From Stramenopiles sp. TOSAG23-6 (Eukaryota): a DNA stretch of 20,000 bases. A program made the position numbers and the translations under genes. Shown here in pieces: positions 1,207 to 20,000 of the stretch (positions are counted from its first letter, which is position 1; every line of letters starts with the position of its first letter). The DNA lies in assembly GCA_900128565.1 (NCBI GenBank), contig LT635913.1:47196-67195 (forward strand), in the 5' to 3' direction. The notes under the pieces are model-generated. The model had not been told where the DNA came from. It saw only the letters and a program-made list of their open reading frames with translations, and made no database searches.

Positions 1207-1235
1207 GAAAATATTCGAAAATATTCGAAAATATT
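1207..1235. repeat. 10-bp tandem repeat GAAAATATTC, about 3 copies, between convergent genes
   Basis: gaaaatattcgaaaatattcgaaaatatt read directly. Confidence 0.8.
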
Positions 1236-1280
1236 GATTCAAAAGTTTTATTTCTTTTAAAAATATTGAGAAACCACTTG

Positions 1281-2891
1281 CTACTTTTTGACTGAACTTT
1301 GCTTATTCGTTCGGAAAACAGTATCTAGATTTTTCTTTCCAGCGGGCGTCAAATTGGGATATATACACATTCTCATTTGTTCTTGAAATACTTTCTTTTG
1401 ATCGTCCGTCAACAATGGATACAGACTAGTCCTCTGCTTCCTGAAGTATTCATTCACACGTCTTCTGCTGAAAAGAAATCCACGATTTTTGCTGTTCAAA
1501 TCTGACAGCTTGGAGTACATTACTTTCATTCTTTTCGAATCTGCAGTGATTCTTTCGTTCAGCTTTTTCAATTTTGTTGCTTCTTGATCCAGCATCAATT
1601 TCATTTCTAATCTCGCTTTTTTTTGGTGATACGCTAACTTTGACTTCATATCTTTATTCTTTTCGTTAATGATATTAAAGAGACATGAATTAAGAATTTT
1701 CATACGCGAATCATTATTACCGCTATATCCATTATTATTATTATTATTACCATTTGATATTTGTGAAATTCGGCGTTTCTTATTGCTTCCATTAGAATTC
1801 TTCTTGGTTTCACTCATTAAAAAGGCAAGCACACCTTCAATATCATTCTTTAAATTAAATTTCTTTGAACGTCCTGAATAATATGGCGCAGTTGCCAAAT
1901 GTTTACTTATTCCTTCTATACATCTTTCTTGTAATGAAGCTAAAACATTATTCGGCTTTTTCTTACCTTGAAGAATCCATTCATTTCCAGCTTGAGGATA
2001 TCTAAATACGCAGTTTAGCATTTTTAATGCTGTGCCACAATCCAATGATGGCATCATAGTAGGATTTGCAACTCTACTGATAAATTCTGCATTGACCTCT
2101 TCATTATGTAAATTTCTAGAACAATACTCAGAAACTACACGACAAATAGCATAGGATTTTCCTGAATAATAAACTTTCCAATATTTTTTATCATTAGCAT
2201 ATTGTTCAATAATTTTCCAGATCTCAAGAAATAATGGAACAGAGAACTTGCAAATTAAATTTATTGGCGCTTCGAGTTCTTTCATCTCGTAAGTCACATA
2301 ACGCGCACAGCCTGGCGCCGTCGTTGTCGTCGACAACGACAAGCAACGAAATTCTAATAAAGATTGTGCAGTTTTTTTTAGTGCTACTGCTAAAAGCTTT
2401 TCTAAGGAATAAACACAGGCTTCTTTCACATATACAACTGCGTTATACTCGGTACAAATATCTTTTTCCATAAATGCAGTGGTTGCTTTATCAAGCTCAC
2501 GGCATCTAAGATATTGAGCAAGATAAAACAAAGGAACCACGTTTTCTGTTGTTGCCTTAAATGTACCATGATAAACAAAATTAAGAAGAGAAGGAAATGC
2601 GGTGACAGCTGATTGTTTCATAACCAGTTTGCTTTCATTTCTCCGATTTTCAGAAAACGAATCATTTTTTAATAACGTCGAAAAATACTCTAGTCGACGC
2701 GCCCCTCCTGCAATAACGTTTTGGTGACAATGATATGATGTGCCAATATCATCACTCCCTTCAGTTTCGACTATAATTGTCCAGTTTGAAAAGCAATCAG
2801 ATTCATCCGTGTGCCAAGTAAGCATAAGCTTTTCTTCAGGAGGATCATCAAAATGGGTGAATCCTCCAAAATCATTTGATTCATTTGACAT
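1281..2891 (-). CDS. BTB/POZ domain protein with C-terminal coiled-coil
   Basis: 536 aa ORF with BTB-like motifs (YHCHQNVIA, YFSTLL, AFPSLLNFVYHG, VVPLFYLAQYL). Confidence 0.75.
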   Translation of the reverse strand: MSNESNDFGGFTHFDDPPEEKLMLTWHTDESDCFSNWTIIVETEGSDDIGTSYHCHQNVIAGGARRLEYFSTLLKNDSFSENRRNESKLVMKQSAVTAFPSLLNFVYHGTFKATTENVVPLFYLAQYLRCRELDKATTAFMEKDICTEYNAVVYVKEACVYSLEKLLAVALKKTAQSLLEFRCLSLSTTTTAPGCARYVTYEMKELEAPINLICKFSVPLFLEIWKIIEQYANDKKYWKVYYSGKSYAICRVVSEYCSRNLHNEEVNAEFISRVANPTMMPSLDCGTALKMLNCVFRYPQAGNEWILQGKKKPNNVLASLQERCIEGISKHLATAPYYSGRSKKFNLKNDIEGVLAFLMSETKKNSNGSNKKRRISQISNGNNNNNNGYSGNNDSRMKILNSCLFNIINEKNKDMKSKLAYHQKKARLEMKLMLDQEATKLKKLNERITADSKRMKVMYSKLSDLNSKNRGFLFSRRRVNEYFRKQRTSLYPLLTDDQKKVFQEQMRMCIYPNLTPAGKKNLDTVFRTNKQSSVKK

Positions 2892-3505
2892 TTTCTTTTA
2901 AATAATTGCGTGTAAGAAGAACGTAAAGAAGTGTAACCGGTAATGTTTAGCTATTGTACTAAGAGAATCTTATCCTTGATCTGATGATTGACCGAATCAG
3001 ATTCTTTCAAATGAAACTGAATTGAAAAAAACCTCCGATCAAGAAAGTTCTCAGTCCATTTAGGAAATTTTAGATAACAACAAACAACAACTGTAGTATC
3101 TTTACAATTATCTAAAACGTTTCAGCGAACGTTATTCAACGATTACTTAGTTCATTGTTCACTTACATCAATTATATTTCCTACAAATTCACGATTATCT
3201 TACTCAAACGGGTGAGACACTAAAGAGAAACCATCTCGGGCTTACAGTCCTCGGTAGGTCAACGCCCAAGAAGGCTCGGACGCAGGCCAATTATTACAAG
3301 ACAAAACAAGAACACTCCAGTAGTTTCATCTTCTGGAAGAGTTACCCGTAGTCAATCTAAATCCACTACTATAAAGCGTGCTCGGGTTGATTCACCTGTA
3401 TTGAATATACGAAATACTCGGAGAAGAAAAAGTAAAAAACAAAAGCAACGGCCTAGTTCAGCTTCAGCAACGTCGAAGACTAAAAAAAGATCAAAACGGG
3501 CAGAT

Positions 3506-5716
3506 ATGAAAAATGGAAAAGAAACTTCTGAAGCCTCTACATCTACAAAAATCAAAATGAAAAAGTTTCAAAGTAAATCAAATATTGTGTCCAGCGATGG
3601 GTACTTGACAGTTTCACCTTCAAATTCTTCTACTGGAAATTCGTCAGCTGATCATGTAGAATTTAAAGTGCAAGCACCTGAACTCATTCGTATAGTCCTC
3701 CAAGGCTTGTCGGAGTTAGGCTATTACAAAACTGCGGAAACTCTCTCTAACGAGTCAGGTGTAACAATTCACTCTGAACAAATGGCGCTATTTCGTAGAA
3801 GTATTTTAGACGGGGATTGGACTCTTTGTTTAGAATTGATACCTCATTTAAAATTTTCTCAAACTTCTCAGTCTTCTCAAACCTCACAAATTGAGTTGGC
3901 TCGTTTTTTTATATTAAGAGAAAAGTATCTTGAACTTTTAGAACAAAAGAAAACCACAGAAGCCATCAAATGCCTTCGAACAGAACTGTCTGAGAGTTCA
4001 TTACATAATTCCTCTAAACAAAATTCTGCTGTTCAGGACAACAATGCAGCAATTAGATTTGGTGACCAAAGTTGTTCTCAAATGTTTGATAGTTGTCAAT
4101 CATCAACTGTATTGAACAGCTCAAGATTAAAAACCCTATCCCCTTTGGTTTTGTGTAGTACTAAAAAGGATTTATTGCTCAAGGCCAAATGGGCAGGTAC
4201 AGAAGGCGGGTCTCGTATACATTTATTAAACAAATTCAATACTATATTGCAGCATTCAACCTTAGTACCAGAAAGTCGTCTTCGTACATTACTAGGTCAA
4301 TCATTACAAAATCAAATTGGAAAATCGTTATACCGTAGACCGAGGCATCAGCCATATTCCCTTTTGAATAATAACAAATGCATGCCACCTAAATTACCTA
4401 CACGGGCTGTGTGTGTTTTAGAGGAGCATAATAATGAAGTTTGGCATATAGAGTTTTCAAAAGATAGCAACAAAATGTGTTCATCATCGAAAGATGGTAC
4501 GACTATAATCTGGGATACAAGAGCTATTAAAAACGATCAATTTACTAAAGGATTTTTGCCTGTTCCTATACTTCATAAGCTAAAGCCTCACGAGACAAAA
4601 GATATACCAGTGATGTTTTCAACATGGAGCCCAGACGATTTACTGATTGTGACTTGTCATGGAGATGGAAGCGTCTATCTTTGGGATGCGCTATCAGGTG
4701 ATACTCGGTATAAATTAGTCGGTCATACATCTGCTGTAATATCAGCAGCTTGGCTTCCTGACGGGAAAAGTTTAGTCACAGGTGGAATTGATAAAAAAAT
4801 TATACTATGGGAAATAACGGAAAATATTCCTTCACCTCAAAATGATGTTACTATTAATATCATGAGTAATACACCTAATGGTACAACAAATGAAACAACA
4901 AATGAAACAACAAATGATACAACAAATGATACAACAAATGATACAACAAATGAAACAACAAATGAAACAACAAATGAAACAACAAATGGTACAACAAATG
5001 GTACAACAAATGAAACAACAAATGATACAACAAATGATACAACAAATGATACAACAAATGATACAACAAATGATACAACTGATGGTAATATTACAGATAC
5101 ATCACAGAGTTCAAGTTCATCATTTGATACTGAGTTAGCAGATGTTGGAGAGTTGGTTGAAGGGACAGAAAATATACCAAGTTCAAGCAACATAAGAATA
5201 ATTTCTCCAACATACTTGTGGTTAGGTGTTCAAGTGAATGACATTGTTTTAAATCATTCTGGGACTTCTGTGATAGTAGCAGGTTGCAATAATCAGGTGT
5301 ATATGTATAATTTAGTAAACCGCCAGAAAAAATCTGAAAGTTTTATAAAGGAAAGTGGGTCCGTCATGTCAATGAAATTGACTGATGATGGTCGTTATCT
5401 TTTGTTAGCTATTGCAAATAAAGATATACAAGTTTGGGATATACAAAAGCGCAAGTATGTACTAAACTTTAAGGGTCCTCGCTTAGGCCGGTATGTCATT
5501 CATTTTGCACTGGGTGGTGAAGGACAGTGCTTACTAGCATCTGGTAGTGAAGATTCTCAAATTTATTTATGGTATCGAATTACGGGTACTCCTCTTTCAG
5601 TGTTATCTGGACATGCAGCAACGGTGAATTGTGTGTCATGGGCAACAGTGGATTCAGGAAAATCACCTATATTAGCTAGTTGCAGTGATGATCATACCGT
5701 TCGCATTTGGCGATGA
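3506..5716 (+). CDS. WDR26: WDR26/GID7-like LisH-CTLH-WD40 subunit of the CTLH/GID E3 ligase
   Basis: LisH (ELIRIVLQGLSELGYYKTAETLSNESG), CTLH (FRRSILDGDW, ILREKYLELLE), VPESRLRTLL, WD40 repeats (HNNEVWHIEFS, ASGSEDSQIYLW, LASCSDDHTVRIW). First ATG is at 3506 but the frame is open from 3224. Confidence 0.88.
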   Translation: MKNGKETSEASTSTKIKMKKFQSKSNIVSSDGYLTVSPSNSSTGNSSADHVEFKVQAPELIRIVLQGLSELGYYKTAETLSNESGVTIHSEQMALFRRSILDGDWTLCLELIPHLKFSQTSQSSQTSQIELARFFILREKYLELLEQKKTTEAIKCLRTELSESSLHNSSKQNSAVQDNNAAIRFGDQSCSQMFDSCQSSTVLNSSRLKTLSPLVLCSTKKDLLLKAKWAGTEGGSRIHLLNKFNTILQHSTLVPESRLRTLLGQSLQNQIGKSLYRRPRHQPYSLLNNNKCMPPKLPTRAVCVLEEHNNEVWHIEFSKDSNKMCSSSKDGTTIIWDTRAIKNDQFTKGFLPVPILHKLKPHETKDIPVMFSTWSPDDLLIVTCHGDGSVYLWDALSGDTRYKLVGHTSAVISAAWLPDGKSLVTGGIDKKIILWEITENIPSPQNDVTINIMSNTPNGTTNETTNETTNDTTNDTTNDTTNETTNETTNETTNGTTNGTTNETTNDTTNDTTNDTTNDTTNDTTDGNITDTSQSSSSSFDTELADVGELVEGTENIPSSSNIRIISPTYLWLGVQVNDIVLNHSGTSVIVAGCNNQVYMYNLVNRQKKSESFIKESGSVMSMKLTDDGRYLLLAIANKDIQVWDIQKRKYVLNFKGPRLGRYVIHFALGGEGQCLLASGSEDSQIYLWYRITGTPLSVLSGHAATVNCVSWATVDSGKSPILASCSDDHTVRIWR
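4877..5080 (+). repeat. Coding 12-bp minisatellite AATGAW/AATGGT-ACAACA, 17 copies, encoding N[D/E/G]TT
   Basis: 17 units counted from the translation, inserted between WD40 repeats. Confidence 0.95.
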
Positions 5717-5830
5717 GATTTTTAAGTGTTTATGTTCAATATTGAAAAATTAAAAAAAAAATTCATAAATATTATTTTGAATCAACTACTATTTACTAAC
5801 ATTTATATTTCCAGGTTAAAATTTACATTA

Positions 5831-6550
5831 CTAAGAAACAGTTTCATTATTTTTTTCAGTGTTTTTTTCTACTTCTGTAACTATGTCACTTCCTTCAGTC
5901 TCTACATTTTCTCTCTTTGAAGACACAGTTTTCTTACCTCTGAAATCTTTAATTCTTGGAAATTGTGCAGACGCTACGGTATTACTGATGGTGTAACCAA
6001 ATACAGTTGGCGTGTACGATATATCCAATTTAGGGGGTACATATTCGGGATATGACATAAGCAAGAAATGTGGGAAAGAGCAACCGAAATACGCTCCATC
6101 TACATACCTTGCTGCTACTGTCATTGGTGGAACAAACACATCCTGACATTTAGGACAGTATACCATAACCCTTTGTTCTCCAGGAATATCAGATAACCCC
6201 ACGGGCAGGACAGGATAGTTATTACACAATATACGTGGACAATTGCCAAAATCCTCATTCTTAAACTTCTTAAACATAAGTTGCTGACCGTGCGTCGTCA
6301 ATAGAAAACGAGCGTGTATACGACCGTAAAGGTCCATACACTCTTTACGACTCCATTCCTCTCGGTTCCAGTCATCTGAAGAAGAGTCTGAGTTTACATA
6401 ATCGAGAATAATATTGAGGCACTCTGCAAAGTTATGTACTTCAAGGGAAAGTCCATATAGGTTAAAACGACTCTCGATAAAAGAACGATCTACTTGACAG
6501 AAAAAATCGTGGCCCTCCATAGAGCCAAACCACTGAATCCAGTCCGCCAT
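5831..6550 (-). CDS. CSNK2B: Casein kinase II regulatory subunit beta
   Basis: WIQWF..GHDFFCQVD..FNLYGL, LYGRIHARF, FGNCPRILC, YCPKCQDVF, DGAYFGCSFPH. No introns. Confidence 0.95.
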   Translation of the reverse strand: MADWIQWFGSMEGHDFFCQVDRSFIESRFNLYGLSLEVHNFAECLNIILDYVNSDSSSDDWNREEWSRKECMDLYGRIHARFLLTTHGQQLMFKKFKNEDFGNCPRILCNNYPVLPVGLSDIPGEQRVMVYCPKCQDVFVPPMTVAARYVDGAYFGCSFPHFLLMSYPEYVPPKLDISYTPTVFGYTISNTVASAQFPRIKDFRGKKTVSSKRENVETEGSDIVTEVEKNTEKNNETVS

Positions 6551-7003
6551 TAGCCCAAAGAATAAATATACGTATACTGTACAAACGATTCAATACCTCA
6601 CTGATAAATATGGGCACAACACAGTGTGATAATAGCTTGCCTTAATCTCGATTAATATTATTATAAAAGGGTCCACCCTCTTTAGGTCTTGCCACACTCC
6701 TGATTATTGTTCGATACTCCCGATATATAATATAAACCGCGATATAGTATCTCACCTCGAGAGCTCGCTCAAAAAAAATCGAATGTTTCAAACACGAAAT
6801 ATTTAGTATTATTGTACAAAAAAAAATTGAAGCTGACTCTCACAATCTAAATCGTTCTTCAATCAAGAATACTACGCGAATACGACTACGGTAGCTATTT
6901 TACTAGCCTACGTAGCTACAAGTACTAAATTCCTAGTTTAGTATTACAAAAGCGCTTGAAAGATCCTGTACAATTATCGAAATTATTCCTTGTAAAAGAT
7001 AGA

Positions 7004-7822
7004 ATGTTTTTAATGCGTTCTAGATATTTAGTGCATTGTATGCGTATTTCTACTCCATTTGCGCGTCGAAGGAATAGGTTATTTATATCATCCAGCAGCT
7101 ATTTCGACCGCAATTTTAGTATTTTTCCGGATAATAAAAAAGAGAAAGATAATCTTTCTACAAAACAAGAGCATGACACTCTTGATCAAGAGAAGTTTTA
7201 TACAATGGGTCCATTACGCATTCGTGCTGTAAACGTGAACCTCCCAAATGCTCTGACAATAGCACGCATTCTTGCTTCACCTCCTTTATCTGTGTTATAT
7301 TTACAAGGTTATTACAAGAGTGCCTTTTTTTTATTCATGTCTGCTGGTGCGTGCGATTTTTGGGATGGTTATCTAGCTAGAAAATGGAACCAACAAACTG
7401 TGTTGGGTGCTATGCTTGATCCAGTTTCCGATAAAATTCTAGTCGCAGCATTAGCCTTGCCTATGGCGTATGACGGTACTTTACCAATATGGCTTGTCAC
7501 TTTAATTATAGGACGTGACGTTGGTCTTGTTGCTGGTGGTTTCTGGCATCGCTTTCGAACAAAACAGCGTGATGAATTTCTATTTGATACAAAAAGAGTG
7601 AATTGGACTGTGGAACCAACATTTGTAAGTAAGTGTAATACAGCTGGTTTAATTGCACTTGTAAGTTTTGGCTTAACAAATAGTGCATTTTCTTTACCTG
7701 GTGATTTTCTTATACAATGGATGTCGTATGGAGTAGGTTGTACTACTGCTTGGTCTGCTGTCGAGTATATTAATATGTTTGTAAAGAATGACGCTTTCAA
7801 AGATCGAAAGCGAGTCGATTAA
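7004..7822 (+). CDS. CRLS1: Cardiolipin synthase (CDP-alcohol phosphatidyltransferase family), probably mitochondrial
   Basis: NLPNALTIARI, DFWDGYLARKWNQQTVLGAMLDPVSDK, EPTFVSKCNT; Arg-rich N-terminus resembles a presequence. Confidence 0.82.
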   Translation: MFLMRSRYLVHCMRISTPFARRRNRLFISSSSYFDRNFSIFPDNKKEKDNLSTKQEHDTLDQEKFYTMGPLRIRAVNVNLPNALTIARILASPPLSVLYLQGYYKSAFFLFMSAGACDFWDGYLARKWNQQTVLGAMLDPVSDKILVAALALPMAYDGTLPIWLVTLIIGRDVGLVAGGFWHRFRTKQRDEFLFDTKRVNWTVEPTFVSKCNTAGLIALVSFGLTNSAFSLPGDFLIQWMSYGVGCTTAWSAVEYINMFVKNDAFKDRKRVD

Positions 7823-7883
7823 AATGATGAATTTAAATATAGTAAAATTTTGAGACTAGAAACGAAAAATAATTTTTAAAAAT

Positions 7884-9950
7884 TTATAAATTAATAGTCG
7901 TCAACTCTGTGCCGTCATCGTCCATATCACACTGCGGTTCATCCATATTTCCATGAAGTCTGACATGAACATCATCAGTGTATAATATTTCCGAGTTTGG
8001 CATTTTATCCGAACTCTCTAAGGAATCACTTGGTCGGCCTAAAGGTACTAAATATGGAATGAGAAGTATTGGAAGTAATCTTGTTAAACTGCGGGTCAAA
8101 ACAAGCAACTCAATATTATGAAATTCAGGAGCACGAACACCTCCAAAGACTTCCAATAGCCCAACTCCAACATATCCTCCAATGACAGAACCAAAATTTG
8201 AAAGGCCCATTGTCATTGCAAAAAGTGTTGCCTCCATTTTTGGTGGGCATAATTTTGCTGCTAGAATAAAAACTGGCATTGTATTAAATCGACTTATTAA
8301 AGGGGATATAACTTCTTCGCCTAGCATGAAAGCTTTATCTGATATTCCAAGACTTTTGTTCCAACGTTGAACCCAAATAAGATCCATGTATTGTGAAAAA
8401 AAAATGTTTTAGTATAAAAAATCCATAGGTACGAAATTTCATACCAACAAGAAAAAACAATTAAATTCATTTTTCAAAACGTACATGAGATTGACAAATA
8501 CAAGTGCCAGTTGAGTCATTGCAAAGATTTTTCTGTATGGCCATGAACTAAAATATCTATTGTATAACGCCGTCCCAATGACAAAAAAAATATTTCCTAG
8601 AACGCCAAACCAGGAGTGAATAATGTGAAAAAATATTTTTTTTGTCAAGAAAAATGTTAGGTACAAAATTTTTATGGTAAAAAATGAATGAAAATTCAAT
8701 TTTGAAACCATACATAATTTAGGTGAAAAACAGGGACGTTCTCCATAGACCCCATTACAATTTTCTGGGGTTTCTTTTGACCAGTAGTAGATAACTTCTG
8801 AATATGGTTGCATTGCTCCTTGTAAGAAGATATAAATTGTTACTTGAGCTAATACAGGATTGATTTTAGATTCATAGTAATGTATAACGTAGCAAACAAC
8901 TACAGCAATGAGTATACTAAATATACATATTACTGAATTATCAGATACAATAGAAGCAAAACCACCCTTTTCTGAAGAACATATTTTGTATAGTTTGATA
9001 TTTGTTAGGTACAGAATTTGGTATAAAATTTAGGTAAAACATTCATGATGAAAACATACCATTGTCAAAGATATAGCACAAACAAATAAAGCCATTTTGA
9101 TCATCACGCCTTGTTTACCATTATTAATTGCATCTTTTAAAGGTTGAATATTTGAACATTTTCTATACGGAGGTTTGTCACGCTCTTCGGGTAGCCATCT
9201 TCGCCAAGCAGGAACCAGTACGGCTAGTGCTGGTATAACACATAAACCGAGAAGGACACGGCTACCAAACCATTCATAAAGAATTCCAGAAGAACAACCA
9301 GCAAAAATTTGACCAATTCCTAAAGACCCCCAGCATAACGTCTGCAAATCAGCGGCATATTTTGGGCGTTCACGACATCTTTTAGCGACAGATGCATCGA
9401 TCATTACATCAGGGGATGCGATGGAGTAATTAAACATAATCAATAATATTGTAACTATTGCAATGCCCAACCCAGGAGAAAAGGCAAATGATAGAGTTGA
9501 AAATACTCCTGAAAATCCAGCTATACCAATATATGGAGACAGGTGAAGTCCTGAAATTGGAAGTGTATCACTCAATACACCATACATAGATTTAAGTTGC
9601 CATGGAATGTTCCCCACTCCTGACACAACCTGCATTCTATCGGAAGATAGTCCAAGCCCTTTGTGCATTGTTGATTCCGTATCAGAGAGCAGATACCGCA
9701 TTGCGAAGAATCCCCAACCTTCACCAATTCCTTGGTTCACACCATACACAGCAACGACAGAAAGCACAAAATATAGACCGAATGTTCTCGTTAACCGGGA
9801 AAAATATTTGGCCAGCGTACAAGGAAAAAACATTACATAGTCCACGAATTCTGGATTAACAGGAAGTGTATGAAAGTCACGTATACTTGAATCCATACTT
9901 TGGTCTAAATCAAGGCTATCATCTGTCAATGGATCAAACTTTTGGTCCAT
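7884..9950 (-). CDS. BT1-family folate/biopterin transporter; inferred exons 9950-9060, 8966-8714, 8617-8485, 8385-7884
   Basis: PWQLKSMYGVLSDTLPI, ASPDVMIDA, LQTLCWG, GISDKAF, MPVFILAAKLCPPKMEATLFAMTMGLSNFG. The frame is continuous after removing 3 family introns. Confidence 0.88.
8386..8484 (-). mobile_element. Introner-like intron A, 99 nt, GT-AT
   Basis: ctcat|GTACGT...TTCACAATACAT|ggat restores NLMDLIWVQRW; no AG inside; CATG direct repeat at the junctions. Confidence 0.8.
8618..8713 (-). mobile_element. Introner-like intron B, 96 nt, GT-TC (boundary less certain)
   Basis: ttat|GTATGG...TTTTGTACCTAAC...TTCACATTATTC|actcc gives FSPKLYSWFG; in frame and stop-free. Confidence 0.65.
8967..9059 (-). 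mobile_element. Introner-like intron C, 93 nt, canonical GT-AG
   Basis: atg|GTATGT...CTGTACCTAAC...TTCAGAAAAG|ggt restores LTMGGFAS. Confidence 0.8.
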
Positions 9951-10224
9951 TGAGTGTGCTGTATTGGCAGAGTTGATATAATTATAACTTAGGCATTTGA
10001 ATGATATTAACAAGTCATAAAAAATAAAATTGACAGCATGCGCAAAAAAGTAATTATTCGTGTTTTTTTTTTCTGTTAGGACTTCGACTTGACTACTTCG
10101 GTCAAAGGTATTATATATTACCCAGCTAGGGTTATAGTGTCTCTCGAATTCTTGCTCTAAACACACTTCTCTTCACACACTTCTATACCTGTCGAAAAAA
10201 TATTTATCTTAATCTTTTTATATA

Positions 10225-11031
10225 ATGGGCAAACGTGACGAAAATTCTCTCACTAGTACGAAAGACTCGTCAAGCATGGAAGATTCTAATGGTCGTGCAT
10301 TGAAGAAACAAAAGATGAGCAAAAGCGATGCGCCGCCCATCAAGGTAAAGGTCGATGCTCCTACGGCTTCACCTGGAATAGTGTCTTCGACGGTAAATAC
10401 GGCAACCCCCCCAATAACGCCCTCTAAAGTTACAGATGAGAACAATGAAGACAAAAACAAAGTAAATACAAATATAGATTCAACCAAACCTTCAACTGTA
10501 TTATCCGAATCACAGTGTAAACTTGCGCAGTTCCAGGGTTGGTGGAAACTCGACGTTCAAGCGTCCGAAACTATGAAACCATACCTGGAAACGCTTGGTT
10601 TGAGCGCTACGGCTGTCAAAGCCGCATTAAAAACAGAAACAGAATTCCCATCATTTATTCAATTTAAAGTAACGCCGAAAGAAGTTACTATCAAGCGGAA
10701 GTCCAGACTAAGTAGGCCATCGGATGAAAAAGTAGGTATAAATTATAAGTTGGGTATGACAACCTCTTCAGAAACAAAATACGGACAAGTGATTTCAAAT
10801 GCTACAATTCTTAAAGGTGGTATTCTAAATGTATCTGAAACTAGAAAAGTAAATGGCGAAAAAATTAAATTAAGTAGTCAACGAAAGCTTTTGGAGACAA
10901 AAGGAAATACTTTTAACGTAATTGAACAAATAATTACACTTCATCATATCGGTAATAAAGTGACTGTTACTACAAAGAGAATTTGGCGTAGGCAAAGGAG
11001 AGACTCATCGAATATATTTGTCGCGAGTTAA
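10225..11031 (+). CDS. Calycin/FABP-like beta-barrel protein with low-complexity N-terminus
   Basis: FQGWWKLDVQASETMKPYLETLGL resembles the FABP N-terminal GxW motif; beta-strand-rich, ending TKRIWRR. Confidence 0.55.
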   Translation: MGKRDENSLTSTKDSSSMEDSNGRALKKQKMSKSDAPPIKVKVDAPTASPGIVSSTVNTATPPITPSKVTDENNEDKNKVNTNIDSTKPSTVLSESQCKLAQFQGWWKLDVQASETMKPYLETLGLSATAVKAALKTETEFPSFIQFKVTPKEVTIKRKSRLSRPSDEKVGINYKLGMTTSSETKYGQVISNATILKGGILNVSETRKVNGEKIKLSSQRKLLETKGNTFNVIEQIITLHHIGNKVTVTTKRIWRRQRRDSSNIFVAS

Positions 11032-11158
11032 AATGTATCAATAGTTAGTATGTGGAGAAATTCCTTAAATATTTATTTAGTACTTTTATATAATTTACTA
11101 CTAAAATATAAATGAAAAAACATTTTTTTTTTACTTTTCATAGTTTTCAAAAGTTGTG

Positions 11159-12607
11159 TCATTTCATATCCGTTAGTATTCTATTTATATAATTCATCAT
11201 TTTCCGAAGACTTCTGCGACTGGATTTTTTTCGCGGTTCAAGGTTATCTTCCAACTCATTTTTGATGAATTTTAGTTTTTTATTTAACCAATCTGTAGAC
11301 GCACCACGCCATTCCGAATGAGAAGAACAGTATAACAATAAACCTGAGTTTTTGTTATTTTTATAATTTTTCATGGTAGAGACAGTAGACGTTGACGCAG
11401 CTGCATTCAAACAACCATTACAAAGTAAAACTAATGACCGACATAACTCACAACGACCTGTGTGTCTATCATAAGTTTCATTGGGAAACGCACAATATTC
11501 ACATTTTCCAATTATAGTGGGTTTCTTCTGGATCTGTTGATGCCTTTTTCTCTTTTTTGTGGTATCAGATGAAATATTATCTACACAATCGTTTGATACT
11601 GGACGTGCAATACCACGCCCATCAAATGTGAAATTACTGCCGCGGAAAAGACCATGTTGCCATATTTCTTTTTCTTCGACACTTTCATCTTTTTCGTTGC
11701 ATTCATGTTGACAATTTTCTATTTTTTTTTGATTTTTTGTTTTTTTCTCACAGATTTTTTTATCCGTACCATTACCTTTTACACGATTACATGCGAATGA
11801 TTCTAAATATCGATGAATTCCACCCTTAAGCTGAAACACATCTTCTACGCCGTGTCTTTTCATAAGAGCAGAGGCTGTCTCACAACGGATGCCACCTGTA
11901 CAATACATTGCTACTCTTTTATTCTTCAAGTTTAATTTAGAAGCATTTTCATCTAACCATTGAGGAAATGCAGCAAAATTTCGCGTGTTTGGTAAAATTA
12001 CTTCTGCGCCTTTTGCCTTTGCGGTGTCCCCAACAGAAAAGTTACCTATACGCCATTCGTATGGATTTCTACAATCTATTACACATAATGGTTTTTTACT
12101 TGAATTTGTGCCAAAATTCGTATCTAATGGTTGATGAAGATTTGTTTCATTAGAAAATTTGAAATCTCCTGTATCTAATAGAGAATGCCACTCTTGAGGG
12201 GACAAATGAATACCGGCAGTGTTACTTTTCAAATCAATAGGGGTTTGCATTCCGAGAGAGCATATTTCTTTGACAACTCGACATCGTAACTTTTTACCCT
12301 CAAAATGCACTGAAGCATCAGGTCCATCACTTTCACTGAGTTTCCAATCAATATTAGTTGATTCAAATAAGGACATATCTTCTGTTTGTCTCATGTACTC
12401 ATATATATTCGCTGAAGTTCCACCAACTGTACCATTTATACCCCGACGACTAATCCGAATACGCCCAGCTAAAGATAGTTTTGCACACAAAGCTGTCTGA
12501 GCTGAAGCAACTGCGGCAGGATCATTCACTTCCGTGTATAAATAATATAAACAAACTAGTCCATTTTTAATAGATTCATTTGTAATGTTCGAACAAGAAC
12601 CTGTCAT
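11159..12607 (-). CDS. TSTD2: TSTD2/TrhO(YceA)-like rhodanese-domain protein
   Basis: LYYLY, LAGRIRISRRGINGTVGG, HLSPQEW, IDCRNPYE, MYCTGGIRCE, VFQLKGGIHRYLE, C-terminal Cys cluster. Confidence 0.88.
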   Translation of the reverse strand: MTGSCSNITNESIKNGLVCLYYLYTEVNDPAAVASAQTALCAKLSLAGRIRISRRGINGTVGGTSANIYEYMRQTEDMSLFESTNIDWKLSESDGPDASVHFEGKKLRCRVVKEICSLGMQTPIDLKSNTAGIHLSPQEWHSLLDTGDFKFSNETNLHQPLDTNFGTNSSKKPLCVIDCRNPYEWRIGNFSVGDTAKAKGAEVILPNTRNFAAFPQWLDENASKLNLKNKRVAMYCTGGIRCETASALMKRHGVEDVFQLKGGIHRYLESFACNRVKGNGTDKKICEKKTKNQKKIENCQHECNEKDESVEEKEIWQHGLFRGSNFTFDGRGIARPVSNDCVDNISSDTTKKRKRHQQIQKKPTIIGKCEYCAFPNETYDRHTGRCELCRSLVLLCNGCLNAAASTSTVSTMKNYKNNKNSGLLLYCSSHSEWRGASTDWLNKKLKFIKNELEDNLEPRKKSSRRSLRKMMNYINRILTDMK

Positions 12608-12969
12608 TACTAAAACTAATACGTAATAATTTAATAAAGTCCAAAGCTGCTTGCGTGTGAAAAATCTTCTTGATTGACTTGTCGTGCTGAATTCTTCTTC
12701 AGATGGCCTTCAGATGATTTGATTTTGATTTATTTCGTGTGTGTCAATAAAACGGTTAAATAACGGCTGGACAGTAGTATATATTATTGGCTACAGGGTA
12801 CCCCTACACTACTGCTGTAGTACACGTAGGCACCGCATTACTTCTACTACTGATACAAGAACTATTACAAAACGCACATTAAATTTACAATATATCTCTA
12901 GCTAAAACGCCCATATAGCATTAGATTGAGATTATTTTGCAGAAACTTTACGTTTGATATTTTACATAA

Positions 12970-13524
12970 ATGTCAAAGTTTGGGTCACACACGAAAAACG
13001 CATTTCCTTTAGATACACCGTCTGTATTCTATGTCGTTGGTGCTACATCACACGATCCTCTACATCCTCCGGAATATGCCATGACAATGATACCAAATAA
13101 TATAGGTACAAAGTCATCAGTATCAAAACAGAATACTATGAAAAAACAATCTCAAACAAGTGGGAAATTCTGGTCAACTACTGGTGGCTTTCCACAGGAA
13201 ATTATCTTAGAGACTGAGGAGTTATGCAAAGTGCACTCATTGAAACTTGCCACAACAGGTGCTGCTTACTTAACTATACGGTTATATCCTGAATCTCATA
13301 ATTGTAATGAGGTAGCGATGAGTGTTGTCACTCTTGAGAAATCAGAGCCCTTCAATGTCGGATTCCCTCGTCTACAACGTAAAATAGTTCACTTTTCAGA
13401 CCAACCACCTTGCCGTAGAATTAAAATAGTAATAGAAAAAGTATACAATCAATTTGCGACATTGAGTGATGTACACGTAAATAGTTCACCAATTGAAAGT
13501 ATAGAAGAAACAGGAGTAAAATAA
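12970..13524 (+). CDS. IFT25: Intraflagellar transport protein 25 (HSPB11)-like
   Basis: ATSHDPLHPPE, FWSTTGGFPQEIIL, IKIVIEKVYNQFATLSDV. Confidence 0.75.
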   Translation: MSKFGSHTKNAFPLDTPSVFYVVGATSHDPLHPPEYAMTMIPNNIGTKSSVSKQNTMKKQSQTSGKFWSTTGGFPQEIILETEELCKVHSLKLATTGAAYLTIRLYPESHNCNEVAMSVVTLEKSEPFNVGFPRLQRKIVHFSDQPPCRRIKIVIEKVYNQFATLSDVHVNSSPIESIEETGVK

Positions 13525-13678
13525 TAAAAGGAACTATCTTTTTTAATCATATTCTACTTTTTCACTTGTAATAGCCCTAAATTCACAATAAAAACACTTA
13601 TTCAGTAAAATAGCACAGTTTTTCCGATGCTTGAAGTGTTTCGTATTACTACCACACACGCTTGTTACTCCGTTGTAC

Positions 13679-16600
13679 TTACCAAGTTGCTTCACTTGGG
13701 TATTTTCTGTTATTCGTCACTATATTTTGCCTCGCGGATTCCATGATGTTAAGCTGTTGTTTTTCCAGAGTTATCTTGCGAATCCGAGCAGCTGCTGTAC
13801 TGCCATCCCTATTTTGTTTCATTCCGCATATAGAACAACCTTTACTAGGTAAAATATGGGAAGGATTAATAAAGGTACATGTATTTTGGAAAAATATTTC
13901 AAAAACAAAAAACTTGTTAGGTACAAAATTTCGTACGAAAAATAAATTCTAAAAAAAAATAAAACATACATGTGTTACATTTCCATGGTGCATTTTGTTT
14001 TTCTGTATTATCACTATGCCAAACACTTGTTGCGCTTTTCTTCTTCGGTATACTTTTCCATGATTTTATGGAGATGTTGGAAAGATTTGCATTATTTTCA
14101 TCATTTAGATGACTTTGATATTGAAAATTCGAGGTTTGAAAATGTTCACTACTTCTGATATAATTTTCCATCATAGACGATTTTTCATTAGCTTGTATTG
14201 TAGAGGGATGACGACTATTATTAGAATTGAACGTATTCATGCCAGATGATTCGAAATTATTACTTGTTTTTTTTTGGATCGAATGACGCGGGAAACTGCA
14301 CAATTCACATTTTGTTGCATCACGATTAAAATTCTCATATGTACACATTTTACAAACCCAATCGGAGGAGGTAGAAGAAAAGGAAACCATGGAGTTACAT
14401 CTCCCATCAATTATATCTAATTCTGAATCATCATCGCGTGTATACGCTGCTTGTACTTGCTGTAATTGTTCTTCTGCGGCCGCCGCTAATGCTTTCAATT
14501 TTCTTGTTTCATCGTCAGCTTTCTTTGCGGCTATGCGATTTTCATATTCAATGCGTTCTTGTTCAATACGACGTTCTTGTTCAATACGACGTTCTTGTTC
14601 AATACGACGTTCTTCTTCAATGCGACGTTCTTCTTCAATACGACGTTCTTCTTCAATACGACGTTCNAGTTCAAGACGCTCTTGTTCAATACGTTGTTCA
14701 ATACGTTGTTGTTCAAGACGTTTCTGTTCAATATTCTGAGATAACACAAAGTCCAAAGTCTCGTTTGCAACATCTGCACATTCGCGACAAGCTGCATTAG
14801 CACAAATAACAGCAGTATAAGCAGCAGATGCCGCGTTGACACAAAAGGTCTCATTATCAAGAGAATTTGTATTATCAAACTCATTAGCAGCATTGATCAT
14901 TTGCAGAGTTCCATTTTTAAATTGGTAAGATTTTGAAGGAGTAATCATCAAAGAATTATTGGCATCATTTACTGCAGCATATTGATCATCATGAAAAGTA
15001 TTGATTACTTCATTCTGTTTAAATATATTTGTATCATCTTTCAATTCTTGTTTCGATCCTTCCAGTGAAACTGTAGCTTTATCTTGTGGTTGTCTTGTAA
15101 TAATATTTGATTCAACGGCTGTTGATTTCCATACATTTTTACTATATGTAGCAGCCTTCGGCAAAGTAGTTGCTTTCTTTCTCCATGAATCTATTTCTGA
15201 TCGTCCTACGGTTTGTTCTATAGGGTTTCTTGGAAAGTATGTATTGTGAAAAAATATTTCAAAAAAAAATGTTAGGTATAAAATTTCGTACCAAAAAAAA
15301 ACTAGATTTGAAATTCATGATGGAAATGTACATAGCGGTTTAGAAATTCTTGCAGTTGTACTAGAATGTTTCTCTCGTTGGCTAGGACGTTTGGAAGATA
15401 TAGGTGGATAATTTACATTGTTGACTCCATTCGTGTATTTCGTGTATTTTTTTTTTGTTGTTGATGTTGTACTGATTGAAGTTGTTGACGATGAGGCAGA
15501 GTTTATATCGTTCACTTTCGCTCGAGGGACCAAATTTGATTGAGATACAGTATTAGAAGTTGCTGATGTCACAGGTACATCTGGATTCCTTTGAAGAATT
15601 TCACACACCATTTCAATAGCACGAATGCATGTATTGTGAAAAATATTTTTTTTTAGTTACAAAAATCGTTAGGTACAAAATTTGGTACGAAAACAAAAAT
15701 CAGGTAGAAAAGGGATGATGGAAATGTACATGCATTAGATGATGGTCCTTTGACAACAAGTTCATTAAGACCTTTGTACATTGGTTTTGATGACTCTTGT
15801 ACAGCTAGAGAAGTACCTGCATTGTAAAAAAAATAGAAATTAGAAATTCGTTAGGTACAAAATTTTCTAGTAAAAAAAATTAAATCTAAAATTCATAATT
15901 AAAGAGTACCAGTCTCTCGCATAATACGTTTGATGTTGCAACCTGAGGTACCTATTACAGTACCACGCTCTCTTGCAGTAAGTGAATGAAATGGTATGTA
16001 GGAAGCAAACCTTTGCAAAAATTCTGTGGCTTTTGTATGAGCGGCTTGAACTGCCGTGTCTGTACCCGTTATTGTAGCGATGAAAGTTTTCCGGTCAATT
16101 GAATAAGTTGCACCTGTTTCATCTTGAATTCGTTGTATTGTCGCACCTCCAGGACCAATGAATTTAAGCATTTTTTCAAGTGAGCCAAATTCAAACGTTT
16201 TCTGTGAAGATGACATTGGGCGGGGTTTCTTTTGAGATTGTGAGTTTCGTTTGACTGGAGCAACAACAGTTTTTAATGGTACCTTACGAGCTCGTGTGTA
16301 TGAAGGAAGGACTCCACTCTTCCCCCAGGCACTCCGCACTATTCTAGGCTTAGGATGAGATTGATTTGACAAGCCACCATCATCTATATTTGATGTTGTG
16401 ATGGATTTGACTGAATCGATGTTAGATCTACAATAAGGACAACTAGCTGCCTGTTTCTTTGCTAGAAAGGTCTGACGCCAGCTAGATAAACACCCATCGC
16501 AGAATTGATGACGGCACGGTCCTATTTCCACATCAACCAGATTAACCGTACAAACAATACATATGCCTTCAGAATCACTCTCCATACAACTGTTAATTTT

Positions 16601-16738
16601 ATCATCATCCAGATATGGCTTTATTGCAGAAGAATTGAACTGAGGTGGTAAGTGATTATTGTCAGATATGCCTTCAACTTCAAGATTCATAGATGTGAAC
16701 TTTCGTCTGAAAGACAAAGGCTCAGAAAAAGTGCTCAT
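13679..16738 (-). CDS. RING finger + 2 KH + coiled-coil + 2 RanBP2-type zinc finger protein; inferred exons 16738-15910, 15816-15730, 15628-15332, 15238-13970, 13878-13679
   Basis: C3HC4 RING (CIVC..PCRHQFCDGC..CPYCR); KH1 (FIGPGGATIQRIQDETGA); KH2 (VIGTSGCNIKRIMRETG..LVVKGP..CIRAIEMVCEIL) completed across 2 introns; zinc fingers WVCKMCTYEN..CELC and WKCNTCTFIN..CSIC. Confidence 0.85.
13879..13969 (-). mobile_element. Introner-like intron D, 91 nt, GT-AT
   Basis: acat|GTATGT...TCGTACGAAATTTTGTACCTAAC...CAAAATACAT|gtacc restores WKCNTCTFIN; 7-bp direct repeat ACATGTA. Confidence 0.87.
14545..14730 (-). repeat. Coding 18-bp repeat encoding (E[Q/E]ERRI)n charged helix
   Basis: Repeated ttcaatacgacgttcttg/c units; translation RRIEEERRIEQE...; contains one N. 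Confidence 0.9.
15239..15331 (-). mobile_element. Introner-like intron E, 93 nt, GT-AT
   Basis: ctat|GTACAT...TATACCTAAC...TTCACAATACAT|acttt; contains an in-frame TGA and removal joins two same-frame ORFs. Confidence 0.78.
15629..15729 (-). mobile_element. Introner-like intron F, 101 nt, GT-AT
   Basis: gcat|GTACAT...TTTTGTACCTAAC...TTCACAATACAT|gcatt restores the KH helix NACIRAIEMV. Confidence 0.85.
15817..15909 (-). mobile_element. Introner-like intron G, 93 nt, canonical GT-AG
   Basis: actg|GTACTC...TTTTGTACCTAAC...TTTACAATGCAG|gtact restores RETGTSLAV. Confidence 0.88.
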
Positions 16739-17027
16739 GATCTTTTGAATACGCTAAGGTAATGTTGTATGTTTTCTTTGTGATGGAAATAAATCAATTT
16801 AATGAAATATTTGTGACTTTTTAATCTTTGAGAATAGTCGATGATCCCGTCGCAAATGCACACTATTCGTATTGGCCACCATTCGTTGAAAATGTCATAC
16901 ATACACTTTGAAGTCAAAAAATCCAATTTAGAACAAACACGAAATATTTCACAAAATCAGATAATTTTCAAAATTGTTTATTTTGTAATACGTTTGTTTC
17001 TATCAAGAGAAGTCGCAAATGAATAAT

Positions 17028-18923
17028 TTATTCCTTCATCGCCCGAGGAGATGTAGTGATTACGCTTAATTCAACATAAGATTTTGGCGCATTTCCTTCA
17101 GTCATAGTTTTATCAAAATGCATATTTCTTGGAGATTTTGCACTGCTTGATGACACATGTATTGTGAAAAANATATTTTTTTTTNGNTTNAAAAANTNCG
17201 TNAGGTACAAAATTTAGTATGAAAAACAATGTAGTAAAAGATTCAATTTAAAAAAACGTACAAGATTTGTCTTTGTATTTTCTGCTCTCCAAAAGAACTT
17301 TGGTGGAGTTGCACCATGATCTTCAATATGGAAAATTTCATATTGGGTAAGTAAAATTGCTATAATCCCAAGAAGTGTTGCAACAGCTAAAGTTATAAAA
17401 ATGATACTCCAGCCCCAATCACCTTGAAGAATTGGACCCACAAACATTTTGAGGAATATTGCAGAGACAAGCATAGAAATAAAATCCAAAAAACAACTCA
17501 CCAAGCCCGTTTTCCGACCACCAAATTGTACAGCAAACATTCCAGGCACTAAATAATACGACACGGAAATTCCAGCGGAGCAAACGAATATGAGAACAGT
17601 TTTCAGTATAACCAAATCTAATTTTTCTGGATCTGAAATTCCAGGAGCGGAGAGAAACGCTAGCGCAAGTAAAGCGAGTATTGAAATTACTGAAAGCCCA
17701 GCACACATTCTCATTTGGTTTCCACGAGTTAAACGACCATGTACTGTAAAAAACTATTTAAAAAATAAAATTGTTAGGTACAAAATTTCGTACGAAAAAT
17801 AAATAAATTTGAAATTCATGATGAAACCGTACATACACACGACCAAATATAGCAACACCAATAAATAAACCTGCTTGAAAAAACATACCCAGACTGGCCG
17901 CTTCGCCATCCGTGAGTAAAGCACTGTGAAAAATATTCCAAGTTGAAAATTGGTTAGGTACAAAATTTTCAATGAAAAAAAATCTGAAGTGAATGATAAA
18001 AACGAACAGGTTCGTGCCTGTATCGAAAAATAGAGAGGTACTAATTGACCCATTCTTTTTGTTAGGGTCAATAAACACATTCCAGATGTTGCTATAAGAA
18101 ATCGCCCATCTAGAAGAATAGTCATTGCAATCATAAATTCTTCAAAGATTGTCGTTTTCGAAGTGGTTGATGCCGTAGTATCGAGATTTTGTTCAGTTTT
18201 TTGTTTTTCTATCGAAGTTTTATCTGAACTTTTCACAGCTGATGATGTATTTTCATTCAAAGTATTCGATTTCTCCGTATTACCTGATTCTATATTAACT
18301 ACCACATTTGTGTCGTTTGAATCATCCTTTTTTTCTGAGGGTTTGTCATTAAGAGTAATGAACCCAACTATTGCGTTACACACTGTTATAGCAGCCGCAA
18401 TCTGGAGACAAACGCGCCAGTTAAAAGACTCCTGCAAATTACCGTAAAACACTTTAGAAAACATATCACCAGCACGACTTGACATAGAAAGAGACCAGAA
18501 AGCATCCGGAAGTTCTGCAGCAGTAAACCAACCACGAATGATTACTGCGCAAGCTGGCCATACAGGGCTTCCAAAAATTTCAAGAATCGTTGCTGACAAG
18601 ACAATATCATTCAATGAATTAGCAATCGATAACATAAATAAAACTATGGTCATCGTACATAAACCAATTGTTACACTACGAGCTCCACCCGCATAATCAA
18701 TAAAGAAACCGCTTGTTATTTTACCAAATGCCGAGCCGAGGGTTTGTGCAGCTAAAATCGTCGAACATCGCGCTTTATCAAAACCAATTTCTTTGGACAT
18801 TGCTGCATACAGAGGTGGTGGTGCATTTAAGCCCACAATAAACATAGAGTATACACCAAATAGTAAGATAGATATCCATGTTGATGTTTTCACACTTTTG
18901 TTATCTTTTTGCGAGTCCGACAT
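17028..18923 (-). CDS. Major facilitator superfamily transporter; inferred exons 18923-18008, 17918-17833, 17738-17262, 17156-17028
   Basis: GKITSGFFIDYAG (motif A-like), WPACAVIIRGWF, SRAGD, two hydrophobic halves with a central hydrophilic loop, YYLVPGMFAVQFGG. Confidence 0.85.
17157..17261 (-). mobile_element. Introner-like intron H, 105 nt, GT-AT
   Basis: ctt|GTACGT...TTTTGTACCTNAC...TTCACAATACAT|gtg joins in frame to the terminal exon; several Ns inside. Confidence 0.72.
17739..17832 (-). mobile_element. Introner-like intron I, 94 nt, GT-AT (alternative in-frame TAG 15 nt upstream)
   Basis: tat|GTACGG...TCGTACGAAATTTTGTACCTAAC...TTTACAGTACAT|ggt gives FGRVYGRLTR. Confidence 0.75.
17919..18007 (-). 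mobile_element. Introner-like intron J, 89 nt, GT-TT (boundary less certain)
   Basis: acct|GTTCGT...TTTTGTACCTAAC...TTCACAGTGCTT|tactc is needed to enter the LTDGEAASLG helix frame. Confidence 0.62.
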
Positions 18924-19232
18924 TGCAAATAAAACGATAACTAATAATGATTATAAAAGTTGACGTGTTCGTTGTATGACACGTTTGTATTGAAAGATAG
19001 TATTTTACTTTTTTGACATTTTATTTTTAACTTTTGACATTTTTATTTGGAAAAACTTATTACGTCGGGAGTATTTGGGAATTGGGGTACTACTATTTCG
19101 GGGATTTTAATCATTACAAAATATCAGATTTGAAATTTCTCTTTCTCCACGAAACATCAAAATGTGCAAAAATTACTGCCTGGAAAAGACCATGTTGCTG
19201 GCACCATAATAGCATTTGCAAAGTCGAGCTCA

Positions 19233-19946
19233 ATGTATGAAGCTACAACTTTTTCATGTATTTTATTGCTTCCTTGTTTGATTTTGGCTGCAAATATTCC
19301 ATCAAATTGGGAGAGTGATACTGAGGAATCTTTCACGTTACCGCTTGGTGGGCCAAATAAAAATGCAAAATTTGTGACTGTAGATCGCAGAAAGAATCTT
19401 TCGCCGGAAGAGTTTTACGAACAGTATGCAAAAAAAGGCATTCCTGTGGTTGTAACAGATGTTATGGAGTACTTTCCTGATGAATGGAAGAACCGTGTGC
19501 GAACAACTTTTGAAAGTATTACTATAAATGAGTTACGTAAAATTAGTCCTGACACATCTTGGGGCATAAAAGGCTCAATCGACGTTTTTGTAGTTATTGC
19601 ACGCAATATTATGATAATACGTGTTTTTATAGTATCATTATTTTTTCATTTGTAAAAAAATTGATATATTGTTTAAATTATATGGGAGATTACTACCTGA
19701 CCTTAATTTGCCTGAAAAACCTTATTTCAGTAAGTTTGACTCAGTAGATGAGTCTGCAGATATTTTTAGCCAACAACCTGGCCTGGTGTTTTGGGCACAG
19801 GAAGGGATTCCATTCGGTGGGTATGCACATATTGATGATTCATGCAATTCATCATTTTCAATGCAATTTATAGGTAACAAAAAATGGTATTTGTGGCCAC
19901 CAAATTGGCCACCAAATATAGAAAACAAAAAAGATGGAAACACGGT
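19233..19946 (+). CDS. JmjC/cupin-like dioxygenase with probable signal peptide (3' truncated)
   Basis: LSPEEFYEQYAKKGIPVVVTD, then in another frame AHIDD..SMQFIGNKKWYLWPP. The frames could be joined by a GT-AG intron at 19584-19632. Confidence 0.72.
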
Positions 19947-20000
19947 GTACGTTTTCATTATGAATTTCAAATTTATTTTTTTTTTCGTACGAAATTTTGT
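19947..20000 (+). mobile_element. Introner-like intron K (5' part, cut by window end)
   Basis: GTACGTTTTCATTATGAATTTCAAATTTATTTT..TCGTACGAAATTTTGT, closely matching the start of intron I, on the + strand in a + strand gene. Confidence 0.82.

Follow-up and report, generated by a model that had tools for sequence, protein, structure and literature searches.

A family of eleven related inserts, I1 to I11, interrupts four genes in the 20,000-nt stretch of Stramenopiles sp. TOSAG23-6 (contig LT635913.1, positions 47,196 to 67,195) that was analysed here and is called the window throughout. We propose that these inserts are probably an introner-like family, that is, short spliceosomal introns with a yeast-like donor, a branch site and a non-AG 3' end, which have multiplied to high copy number. 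The foremost explanation offered for bursts of intron gain is the introner. Introners are sequence-similar introns that spread, with hundreds of families described, many of them in marine protists (PMC9860276, PMC12130899).

The window is AT-rich (31-39% G+C) and holds 12 eukaryotic genes, densely packed and on alternating strands. An earlier note on this DNA had reported eleven related inserts in four unrelated genes, and all eleven were recovered, between exon flanks that are unrelated to one another. The closest homologues are at most 50% identical. The host genes are as follows:

7887 to 9950, minus strand: gene A, of the folate-biopterin transporter family (BT1); 4 exons; Pfam BT1, E 1e-29 and 2e-33; homologues P0003 to P0026
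13682 to 16738, minus strand: the RING-KH gene, with a RING finger, two KH repeats and two RanBP2-type zinc fingers; 5 exons; Pfam KH_1 and zf-C3HC4
17031 to 18923, minus strand: gene B, an MFS transporter; 4 exons; Pfam MFS_1; homologue P0001, 42% identity
19164 to 20000, plus strand: gene C, no family assigned; carries I11

In the RING-KH gene the second KH repeat and both RanBP2-type fingers were assigned by reading the open reading frames (ORFs) by eye, and a Pfam search of the exons with these fingers gave no match. Ten copies are complete and one is cut by the window end. With boundaries set by homology, the complete copies measure 80-105 nt instead of the 89-105 nt given previously, and I3 runs 14 nt past the shared 3' block to a real AG. 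The copies are listed below, a caret marking the cut:

8386 to 8484, minus strand: I1, 99 nt, GT...ACAT^, equally AT...AC; third intron of the BT1 gene; no AG anywhere
8618 to 8715, minus strand: I2, 96 nt removed; cut either AT(8715)...AT(8620), which is family-homologous, or GT(8713)...TC(8618)
8967 to 9059, minus strand: I3, 93 nt, canonical GT...AAAAG^; a diverged member, 66% identity to the consensus; nhmmer E 4.9e-11
13879 to 13969, minus strand: I4, 91 nt, GT...ACAT^; 7-nt direct repeat ACATGTA across the boundaries
15239 to 15331, minus strand: I5, 93 nt, GT...ACAT^; in frame; similarity of metagenome contigs (run X3, below) begins at 15239
15629 to 15729, minus strand: I6, 101 nt, GT...ACAT^; in frame; direct repeat CATG
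15817 to 15909, minus strand: I7, 93 nt, canonical GT...GCAG^; direct repeat GGTACT
17157 to 17261, minus strand: I8, 105 nt, GT...ACAT^; 7 N letters; 5' flank TT instead of AT
17739 to 17832, minus strand: I9, 94 nt, GT...ACAT^; two upstream AGs out of frame with the family donor
17924 to 18007, minus strand: I10, the most diverged, 64% identity to the consensus; GT(18007)...CA(17925), or GTTTTT(18003)...CACAG(17924), 80 nt
19947 to 20000, plus strand: I11, the 5' 54 nt of a cut copy; the sole plus-strand copy, in gene C; nhmmer E 8.8e-8

The N letters of I8, at 17172-17201, mark a low-quality stretch, and the TT before its GT, some 60 nt away, may also be unsafe. The BT1 gene introns (99, 96 and 93 nt, within 8386-9059) are all multiples of three in length. 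I2 contains no in-frame stop, so that its retention would add 32 residues and not truncate the protein; a 124-residue ORF of the protein collection, P0002, matches the window translation at 100% and reads through I2. A frame change in gene C at 19584-19683 (plus strand) seems to need one further intron, of another kind and about 100 nt long, with its GT at 19584, whose in-frame 3' end, AAATTATAT^GG, is also without AG; a 43-nt GT...TATAG is the alternative. As a twelfth family member this stretch was rejected for dissimilarity (182 of 500 shuffles score as well). The start-to-start spacings of successive copies over 8386-18007 are 180, 182, 232, 348, 397, 573, 1350 and 1355 nt; several lie near multiples of 180-195, recalling insertion between nucleosomes, and the intervals are too few to test.

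The relatedness of the copies extends beyond their splice signals. The 20-mer core TACNAAATTTTGTACCTAAC is matched nine times in the window with at most three mismatches, against a mean of 0.01 expected, and none of 200 shuffles reaches nine. An nhmmer profile built from the copies, a check that the earlier note had suggested, returned exactly eleven matches in the window (E 6e-18 to 9e-8) and nothing else convincing, with no copies within positions 1-8000. An independent repeat finder recovered a ten-copy family and paired I11 with I5 (89% over 53 nt) and with I9 (92% over 39 nt); pairwise identity between copies goes up to 89-93%, and identity to the ten-copy consensus runs from 0.64 (I10) to 0.87 (I9). 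With the branch block and the terminal stretches (8 nt at the 5' end, 12 nt at the 3' end) taken out, the mean pairwise identity of the interiors over 45 pairs is 0.613, against 0.524 +/- 0.018 for shuffled interiors (maximum 0.556; 0 of 30 sets reach 0.613) and 0.394 +/- 0.044 for random intergenic pieces, so that the similarity withstands the comparison with shuffled controls outside the splice signals that had been named in advance. The sense orientation claimed for the inserts holds for all eleven (10 minus, 1 plus; P about 0.001) and points to selection for splicing. It is likewise true in the window that none is intergenic, but this is uninformative (P = 0.27), because merely 11% of the window is intergenic. 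The copies are confined to four of the 12 genes, fewer than random placement gives (1,223 of 100,000 simulations; P about 0.012). Of the two readings that had been offered, a proliferated and since-diverged intron family is favoured by the interior similarity, by the identities of 89-93% between copies and by metagenome matches at 90% or more, and pure selection on splice signals is disfavoured. What had gone unnoticed is that most copies have no 3' AG, which does not agree with their description as ordinary introns and is their most unusual feature.

The abundance of the family can be gauged from contigs of four sequencing runs placed on positions 1-17170 of the window, namely X3, a seawater DNA metagenome from another study, and the RNA runs X6, X9 and X10. 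X3 contains long contigs of the same sequence as the window with few differences, including one of 3,071 nt that spans 6294-9362 with I1-I3 and has 18 differences, which argues for a marine protist as the source of the window DNA and against an assembly artefact confined to a single sample. From X3, 5,062 contigs were placed on the window, matching the inserts at a likeness of at least 90%. The summed depth of X3, which adds over organisms and is not a copy number, reaches 19,256 in the bin with I4, 1,536 in that with I5 and 3,672 in that with I6 and I7, against 5-10 in most other bins and about 7 in the flanks; the insert bins thus stand at 200-2,700 times the flanks, highest at I4. Among the long X3 contigs listed, breaks fall at I4, at I5 and near I6 (records 13-16), which is the behaviour of contigs at repeats, and record 11 passes through I1-I3. 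Most of the joints listed connect about 13971 with about 15239 or 15629, positions at which different copies end. Depth and contig pattern are those of a high-copy repeat and not merely of a shared splice signal. Since similarity to other copies reaches 13971-13973 and starts at 15239, the repeated unit is ATGTAY...CACAATACAT, with AT at both ends. In the RNA run X6, over 13753-16044, metatranscriptome contigs pile up on the introns (summed depths 3,594, 103 and 358, against 0-8 on exons); these could be unspliced RNA, excised introns or DNA carry-over.

Each copy is built in the same order: the donor GTAYGT (consensus GTAYGTTTT), CATCATGAATTT, a T run, the near-palindrome GGTACGAAATTTTGTACC, the branch site TACCTAAC, a T-rich tract of about 30 nt and the end CACAATACAT, with the branch A 33-41 nt from the 3' end by manual count. 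The element GGTACGAAATTTTGTACC (13925-13942 in I4), 18 nt long, reads as a palindrome once G.T pairs are counted; it sits immediately upstream of the branch site, with which it overlaps, and may serve as a binding site for a protein or form a small hairpin. When whole introns were folded, such a hairpin appeared in I4 and I1 and in none of the other seven copies folded. A stable RNA hairpin was considered for the intron and rejected, the fold z ranging from -2.03 to +1.04 against shuffles in the nine copies folded (I8 was left out for its N letters). The boundaries carry direct repeats of 0-7 nt (CATG, ACATGTA, ATG, TGT, AT, GGTACT), whose mean length is 3.3 nt for own pairs and 2.56 nt for cross pairs; 3 of 5,000 re-pairings reach 3.3.

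The 3' ends were located from the reading frame and from homologous proteins: unless about 80-105 nt are taken out, the exons do not join in frame and in line with homologues. For gene A, ten BT1 homologues were used, 31-47% identical over the aligned stretch. At I1, all nine spanning homologues show a 33-column gap and are colinear with no extra residues (..VFNI^LDLIWV.. against ..FVNL-M-DLIWV..), which implies the removal of 99 nt, from the GT at 8484 to the ACAT at 8386; the sole in-frame GT-AG choice would delete 11 conserved residues. At I2, ten of ten homologues have 16 residues between CFSP and GT.LYN, so that 32 codons (96 nt) must go; this is fitted by AT...AT, with one cut 2 nt ahead of the GT and the other following ..CACATTAT (K-F-H-S), or by GT...TC (K-L-Y-S), and the sole in-frame canonical pair would delete 15 residues. 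At I3, a 31-column gap is placed exactly at 8967-9059 by five of ten homologues, one places 32 columns, and P0021 shares ISLTM^G; the gap placement argues for an ordinary GT-AG intron with its AG beyond the family 3' block.

In the RING-KH gene, cutting I4 at GT...ACAT^ restores W-x-C-x2-C-x3-N...C-x2-C, the spacing of the gene's first RanBP2-type finger. By manual count, the cut of I6 puts 16 residues between G and LQR of the second KH repeat, where the first repeat has 15; cutting 6 nt further upstream would give 18. The junction of I7, RETG^TSLAV, is colinear with DETGATYSI of the first KH repeat, its AG occupying the exact position of the AT in other copies. In X9, one RNA contig (record 31) matches from 15332, which immediately precedes the I5 donor, and its 19 further letters depart from the intron sequence, hinting only weakly at splicing. 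In gene B, for which a search of the protein collection gave one distant homologue (P0001), I8 has no canonical pair in frame with the family donor, and at I9 that homologue is colinear (IFGGMYGRLESV against IFGRVY^GRLTRG).

All six ACAT-ending copies keep the frame when cut at GT...ACAT^ (P about 0.0014, taking the pair of sites as fixed), and no AG follows the branch block in I1, I2, I5, I6, I8 and I10. Canonical alternatives were listed as in-frame GT/GC-AG pairs within -60 to +60 nt, and for I1, I2, I4, I6 and I8 they were rejected, every such pair deleting at least 11 residues or cutting at the branch site. Options that change little exist only for I9 (one residue fewer) and I10 (a weak donor), and I5 has a GC-AG pair at the cost of five residues. 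A 3' cut 6 nt upstream, at CACA^, is in frame and was also rejected, since it adds two residues at I1 (against nine of nine homologues), I9 and I6 and changes the finger spacing at I4. Canonical GT-AG ends are found in I3 and I7, possibly in I10, and not in I1, I2, I4, I5, I6 and I8; I9 can have them only from a donor other than that of the family. We infer from these frames and alignments that six copies would be cut at GT...ACAT^, the intron ending in AT, and that a non-AG 3' end would be present in six to eight of ten copies.

A number of observations speak against an introner-like family with such ends and have to be set beside this evidence. Among the contigs listed for X6, X9 and X10 there is no RNA junction, none bridging any intron, a coverage gap that in itself proves nothing, and most of the joints listed for the RNA runs are matches between different repeat copies. 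Spliced transcripts were also sought through the protein collection, where neither the exon between I6 and I5 nor a translated-intron query gave a match. The major spliceosome is not known to work with an intron whose first position is G and whose last is U. At GT...AT the frame of I2 would shift, so that it needs AT...AT or GT...TC, or is retained; I9 would have to skip its two upstream AGs, and has a canonical alternative, GTGTGT...ACAG, with one residue fewer and the conserved Y lost; I10 has a canonical reading from a weak donor that lies 4 nt further inside. With regard to mobility, no antisense, intergenic or autonomous copies were seen within the 20-kb window, and the boundary repeat is mostly common to the whole family and not locus-specific. 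Long terminal inverted repeats were rejected: only ATGTA and TACAT (5 nt) are shared, and longer ones do not rise above shuffles in nine of ten copies, the remaining one having at most 10 of 300 shuffles that reach its score. When public contigs were pattern-scanned for further copies, 18 metagenome loci, 28 viral loci and 6 prokaryote loci came up, all chance core-only matches; none of the metagenome and viral loci is full-length in nhmmer, and the 6 prokaryote loci were judged by record titles only.

We hypothesise that the host of the family is a marine protist with a compact and otherwise intron-poor genome, whose spliceosome would find the copies by their strong donor and branch site and would accept a non-AG 3' end, and that two diverged copies (I3, I7) would have acquired or kept a normal AG. 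The boundary repeat, with the consensus AT or CATG, would fit a target-site duplication of 2-4 bp or a preferred AT^G site for reverse splicing, both being possible since most of the repeat is common to the whole family. In its fullest form, which we put forward tentatively and hold to be possible rather than probable, the proposal is that the major spliceosome removes thousands of mobile-element-derived introns that have a perfect GTAYGT donor and end in AU, the choice of the 3' site being set by the conserved end of the element and not by AG, and that an introner has spread a non-canonical acceptor through an intron-poor genome. An AU end fits the 'AY' end typical of group II introns.

The register of the cut has to be considered in this context. 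GT...AT and AT...AC give identical mRNA for I1, I4, I5, I6 and I9, because AT is repeated at both boundaries, and it is conceivable, albeit on balance unlikely, that the cuts in this same family lie two bases upstream of these sites and the copies are AT-AC introns (^ATGTAY...CACAATAC^). In favour of this register, both spliceosomes are known to work with A first and C last, and I2 is in frame and colinear only at the shifted family-homologous sites (K-F-H-S, with F in 7 of 10 homologues). Similarity of metagenome contigs also reaches 13971 and thus takes in the AT before the GT. As a lead only, AT-AC introns with a WCTAAC branch motif occur in some marine mirusviruses (PMC12768974). On the other side, all 11 copies have the GT, as part of a perfect GTAYGT, but just 6 of 11 have an AT before it; I3 and I7 use that GT with a normal AG, which in I7 stands at the AT position; and I2 would become AT-AT and I8 TT-AC. 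One AT-AC donor reads ATAAGT, unlike ATGTAYGT. The same holds for the known AT-AC donor ATATCC (10.1101/2020.10.12.336362). GT...AT is preferred, as the likelier of the two registers.

Other explanations of the family as a whole can be envisaged. Extended splice signals might be under selection, long 5', branch and 3' elements being needed, so that unrelated and possibly old introns would have converged without recent copying. It is consistent with this that the blocks of highest conservation are those of the donor, branch site, T tracts and 3' end, that all copies are sense and none intergenic, and that the two clear GT-AG members are among the more diverged copies. We nevertheless consider it improbable in view of the interior similarity above shuffled sequence, the closely related pairs, the thousands of metagenome contigs that match at 90% or more and the tightly bounded lengths; the stretch of about 100 nt in gene C is dissimilar to the family and, if it is an intron, indicates that an intron can do without the blocks. 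Removal by a transformed minor (U12-type) spliceosome, as in the expansion of Physarum, has about the same small chance of being correct. It would explain the long conserved 5' and branch motifs, by which U12-type introns are defined in extended form, and the tolerance of non-AG ends, and TACCTAAC resembles TTCCTTAAC. However, the donor GTAYGT is not [GA]TATCCTT, differing at positions +5 and +6, and matches the yeast U2-type donor GTATGT; there is no branch motif TTCCTT[GA]AC near a 3' end without a T tract, the T-rich tract being clear and the branch A lying 33-41 nt from the 3' end against 10-12 nt in Physarum; and the window contains no small nuclear RNA (snRNA) gene. As motifs, the donor and the branch site read as closer to the yeast U2 type than to U12 motifs.

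It can also be asked whether the inserts are introns at all, or rather a small transposon that broke the genes or segments cut from DNA as in ciliates. The short terminal palindrome formed by ATGTA and TACAT, the boundary repeat and the absence of AG from most copies would be compatible with this, which we regard as very improbable. The copies are all sense and carry donor, branch site and T tract in spliceosomal order, and ten of them, in four genes, are all removable in frame, which is unexpected of dead genes. In addition, the DNA contig depth of I1-I3 equals that of the flanks (about 7), an intron-free DNA form is absent among the contigs listed, and the ORFs of the window end at standard stop codons. 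Ciliate-like excision at the DNA level was rejected in view of orientation, signals and depth.

Comparison with known systems places the introner-like family of the window among several cases of intron proliferation. Like the introners of Micromonas, Aureococcus, dinoflagellates and fungi, it consists of similar introns, short and richer in AT than the exons, that interrupt unrelated genes at unrelated positions; introners likewise bring one splice site or both with them, frequently have short repeats at their boundaries and occur widely in marine protists (PMC9860276, PMC12130899). The sequence shared along most of the length at non-homologous positions, by which introners are recognised, is found in the 11 copies. 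Described introners have GT, GC or GA donors and AG acceptors, whereas the consensus 3' end here is non-AG, and the introner survey dropped families with unfamiliar ends unless they were RNA-supported (PMC12130899). In contrast to introners, no clear target-site duplication length, long terminal inverted repeat or autonomous copy was seen in the window family. No description of it was found in the literature, the supplementary family lists of introner surveys, in which it may be catalogued, not being covered by this search.

The closest parallels are Amoebophrya, Fritillaria and Physarum. The introner elements of Amoebophrya are also repeated non-canonical introns of a marine protist, with boundary direct repeats of 3-5 nt and inverted termini, and are seen as transposon-like; they differ in having inverted repeats of 8-20 nt that form hairpins and no consistent terminal dinucleotides, and in that U1 was not found (PMC7789003). 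In the window family the inverted termini measure 5 nt, the folds are no stabler than shuffles, and the donor and branch site are strong and classical; boundary direct repeats and, by our reading of the junctions, non-GT-AG ends are shared with the Amoebophrya type, but hairpin-forming repeats of 8-20 nt are not. Fritillaria borealis has transposon-derived introns that end in AC or AT, are handled by an adapted major spliceosome and take their 3' site partly from the boundary repeat; however, their 5' end is AG (AG-AC, AG-AT) and its GT-AG introns are old, whereas all copies in the window have a 5' GT (Henriet 2019, as reviewed in PMC11282704). The U12-type introns of Physarum polycephalum resemble the family in their mass gain, long conserved motifs, short terminal inverted repeats and 2-nt boundary repeat, which is TA; their ends include GT-AT (17%), AT-AT (8%), AT-AG and AT-AA, and a transposon origin has been proposed (10.1101/2020.10.12.336362). 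They differ in the donor [GA]TATC[CT]TT and in the branch motif TTTGA 10-12 nt from the end (10.1101/2020.10.12.336362), against GTAYGT, TACCTAAC at 33-41 nt and a T tract in between. Non-GT-AG ends, boundary repeats and a suspected origin from small transposons are also reported for the nonconventional introns of euglenids and diplonemids, but these have extensive pairing of their ends, no T tract and no donor consensus, none of which applies to the window family (PMC12621601, PMC11282704). The family is set apart by a canonical strong donor and branch site combined with a non-AG consensus end, without the hairpins of Amoebophrya or the U12 motifs of Physarum.

Since the catalogued families were found via gene models that assume GT/GC-AG, a family with a non-AG consensus acceptor would be invisible to such pipelines, and it would leave hundreds of genes mis-annotated in the organism and its relatives; P0002, for its part, reads through I2. 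If confirmed by RNA, a textbook donor and branch site with a non-AG end would constitute a clean natural experiment on what determines the second step of splicing, as well as a further case of transposon-like intron gain with relaxed splice-site rules, as in Fritillaria, Amoebophrya and Physarum. The imperfect boundary repeats of I2 and I8 would then make the exact position of the cut directly testable.

In addition to the BT1 folate-biopterin transporter, the RING-KH protein, the MFS transporter and the partial gene C, the window encodes an aldehyde dehydrogenase (ALDH), a BTB protein, a WDR26-like WD40 protein, casein kinase II (CK2) beta, a CDP-alcohol phosphatidyltransferase (CDP-OH transferase), a UPF0176/rhodanese protein and two ORFs without family. 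These eight genes (1-8000 and 10228-13521), that is, ALDH, BTB, WD40, CK2 beta, CDP-OH transferase, rhodanese and the two unassigned ORFs, are single uninterrupted ORFs without a family copy. Rfam gave no match on the window. Two tandem repeats lie within coding sequence: a 12-nt repeat of about 20 copies at 4798-5145 (plus strand), within the WDR26-like WD40 gene, encodes N-[ED]-T-T runs and shows small in-frame deletions between an X3 contig and the window, and an 18-nt repeat at 14536-14714 (minus strand), in the RING-KH gene, encodes ERRIE[EQ] units and includes an N letter at 14667.

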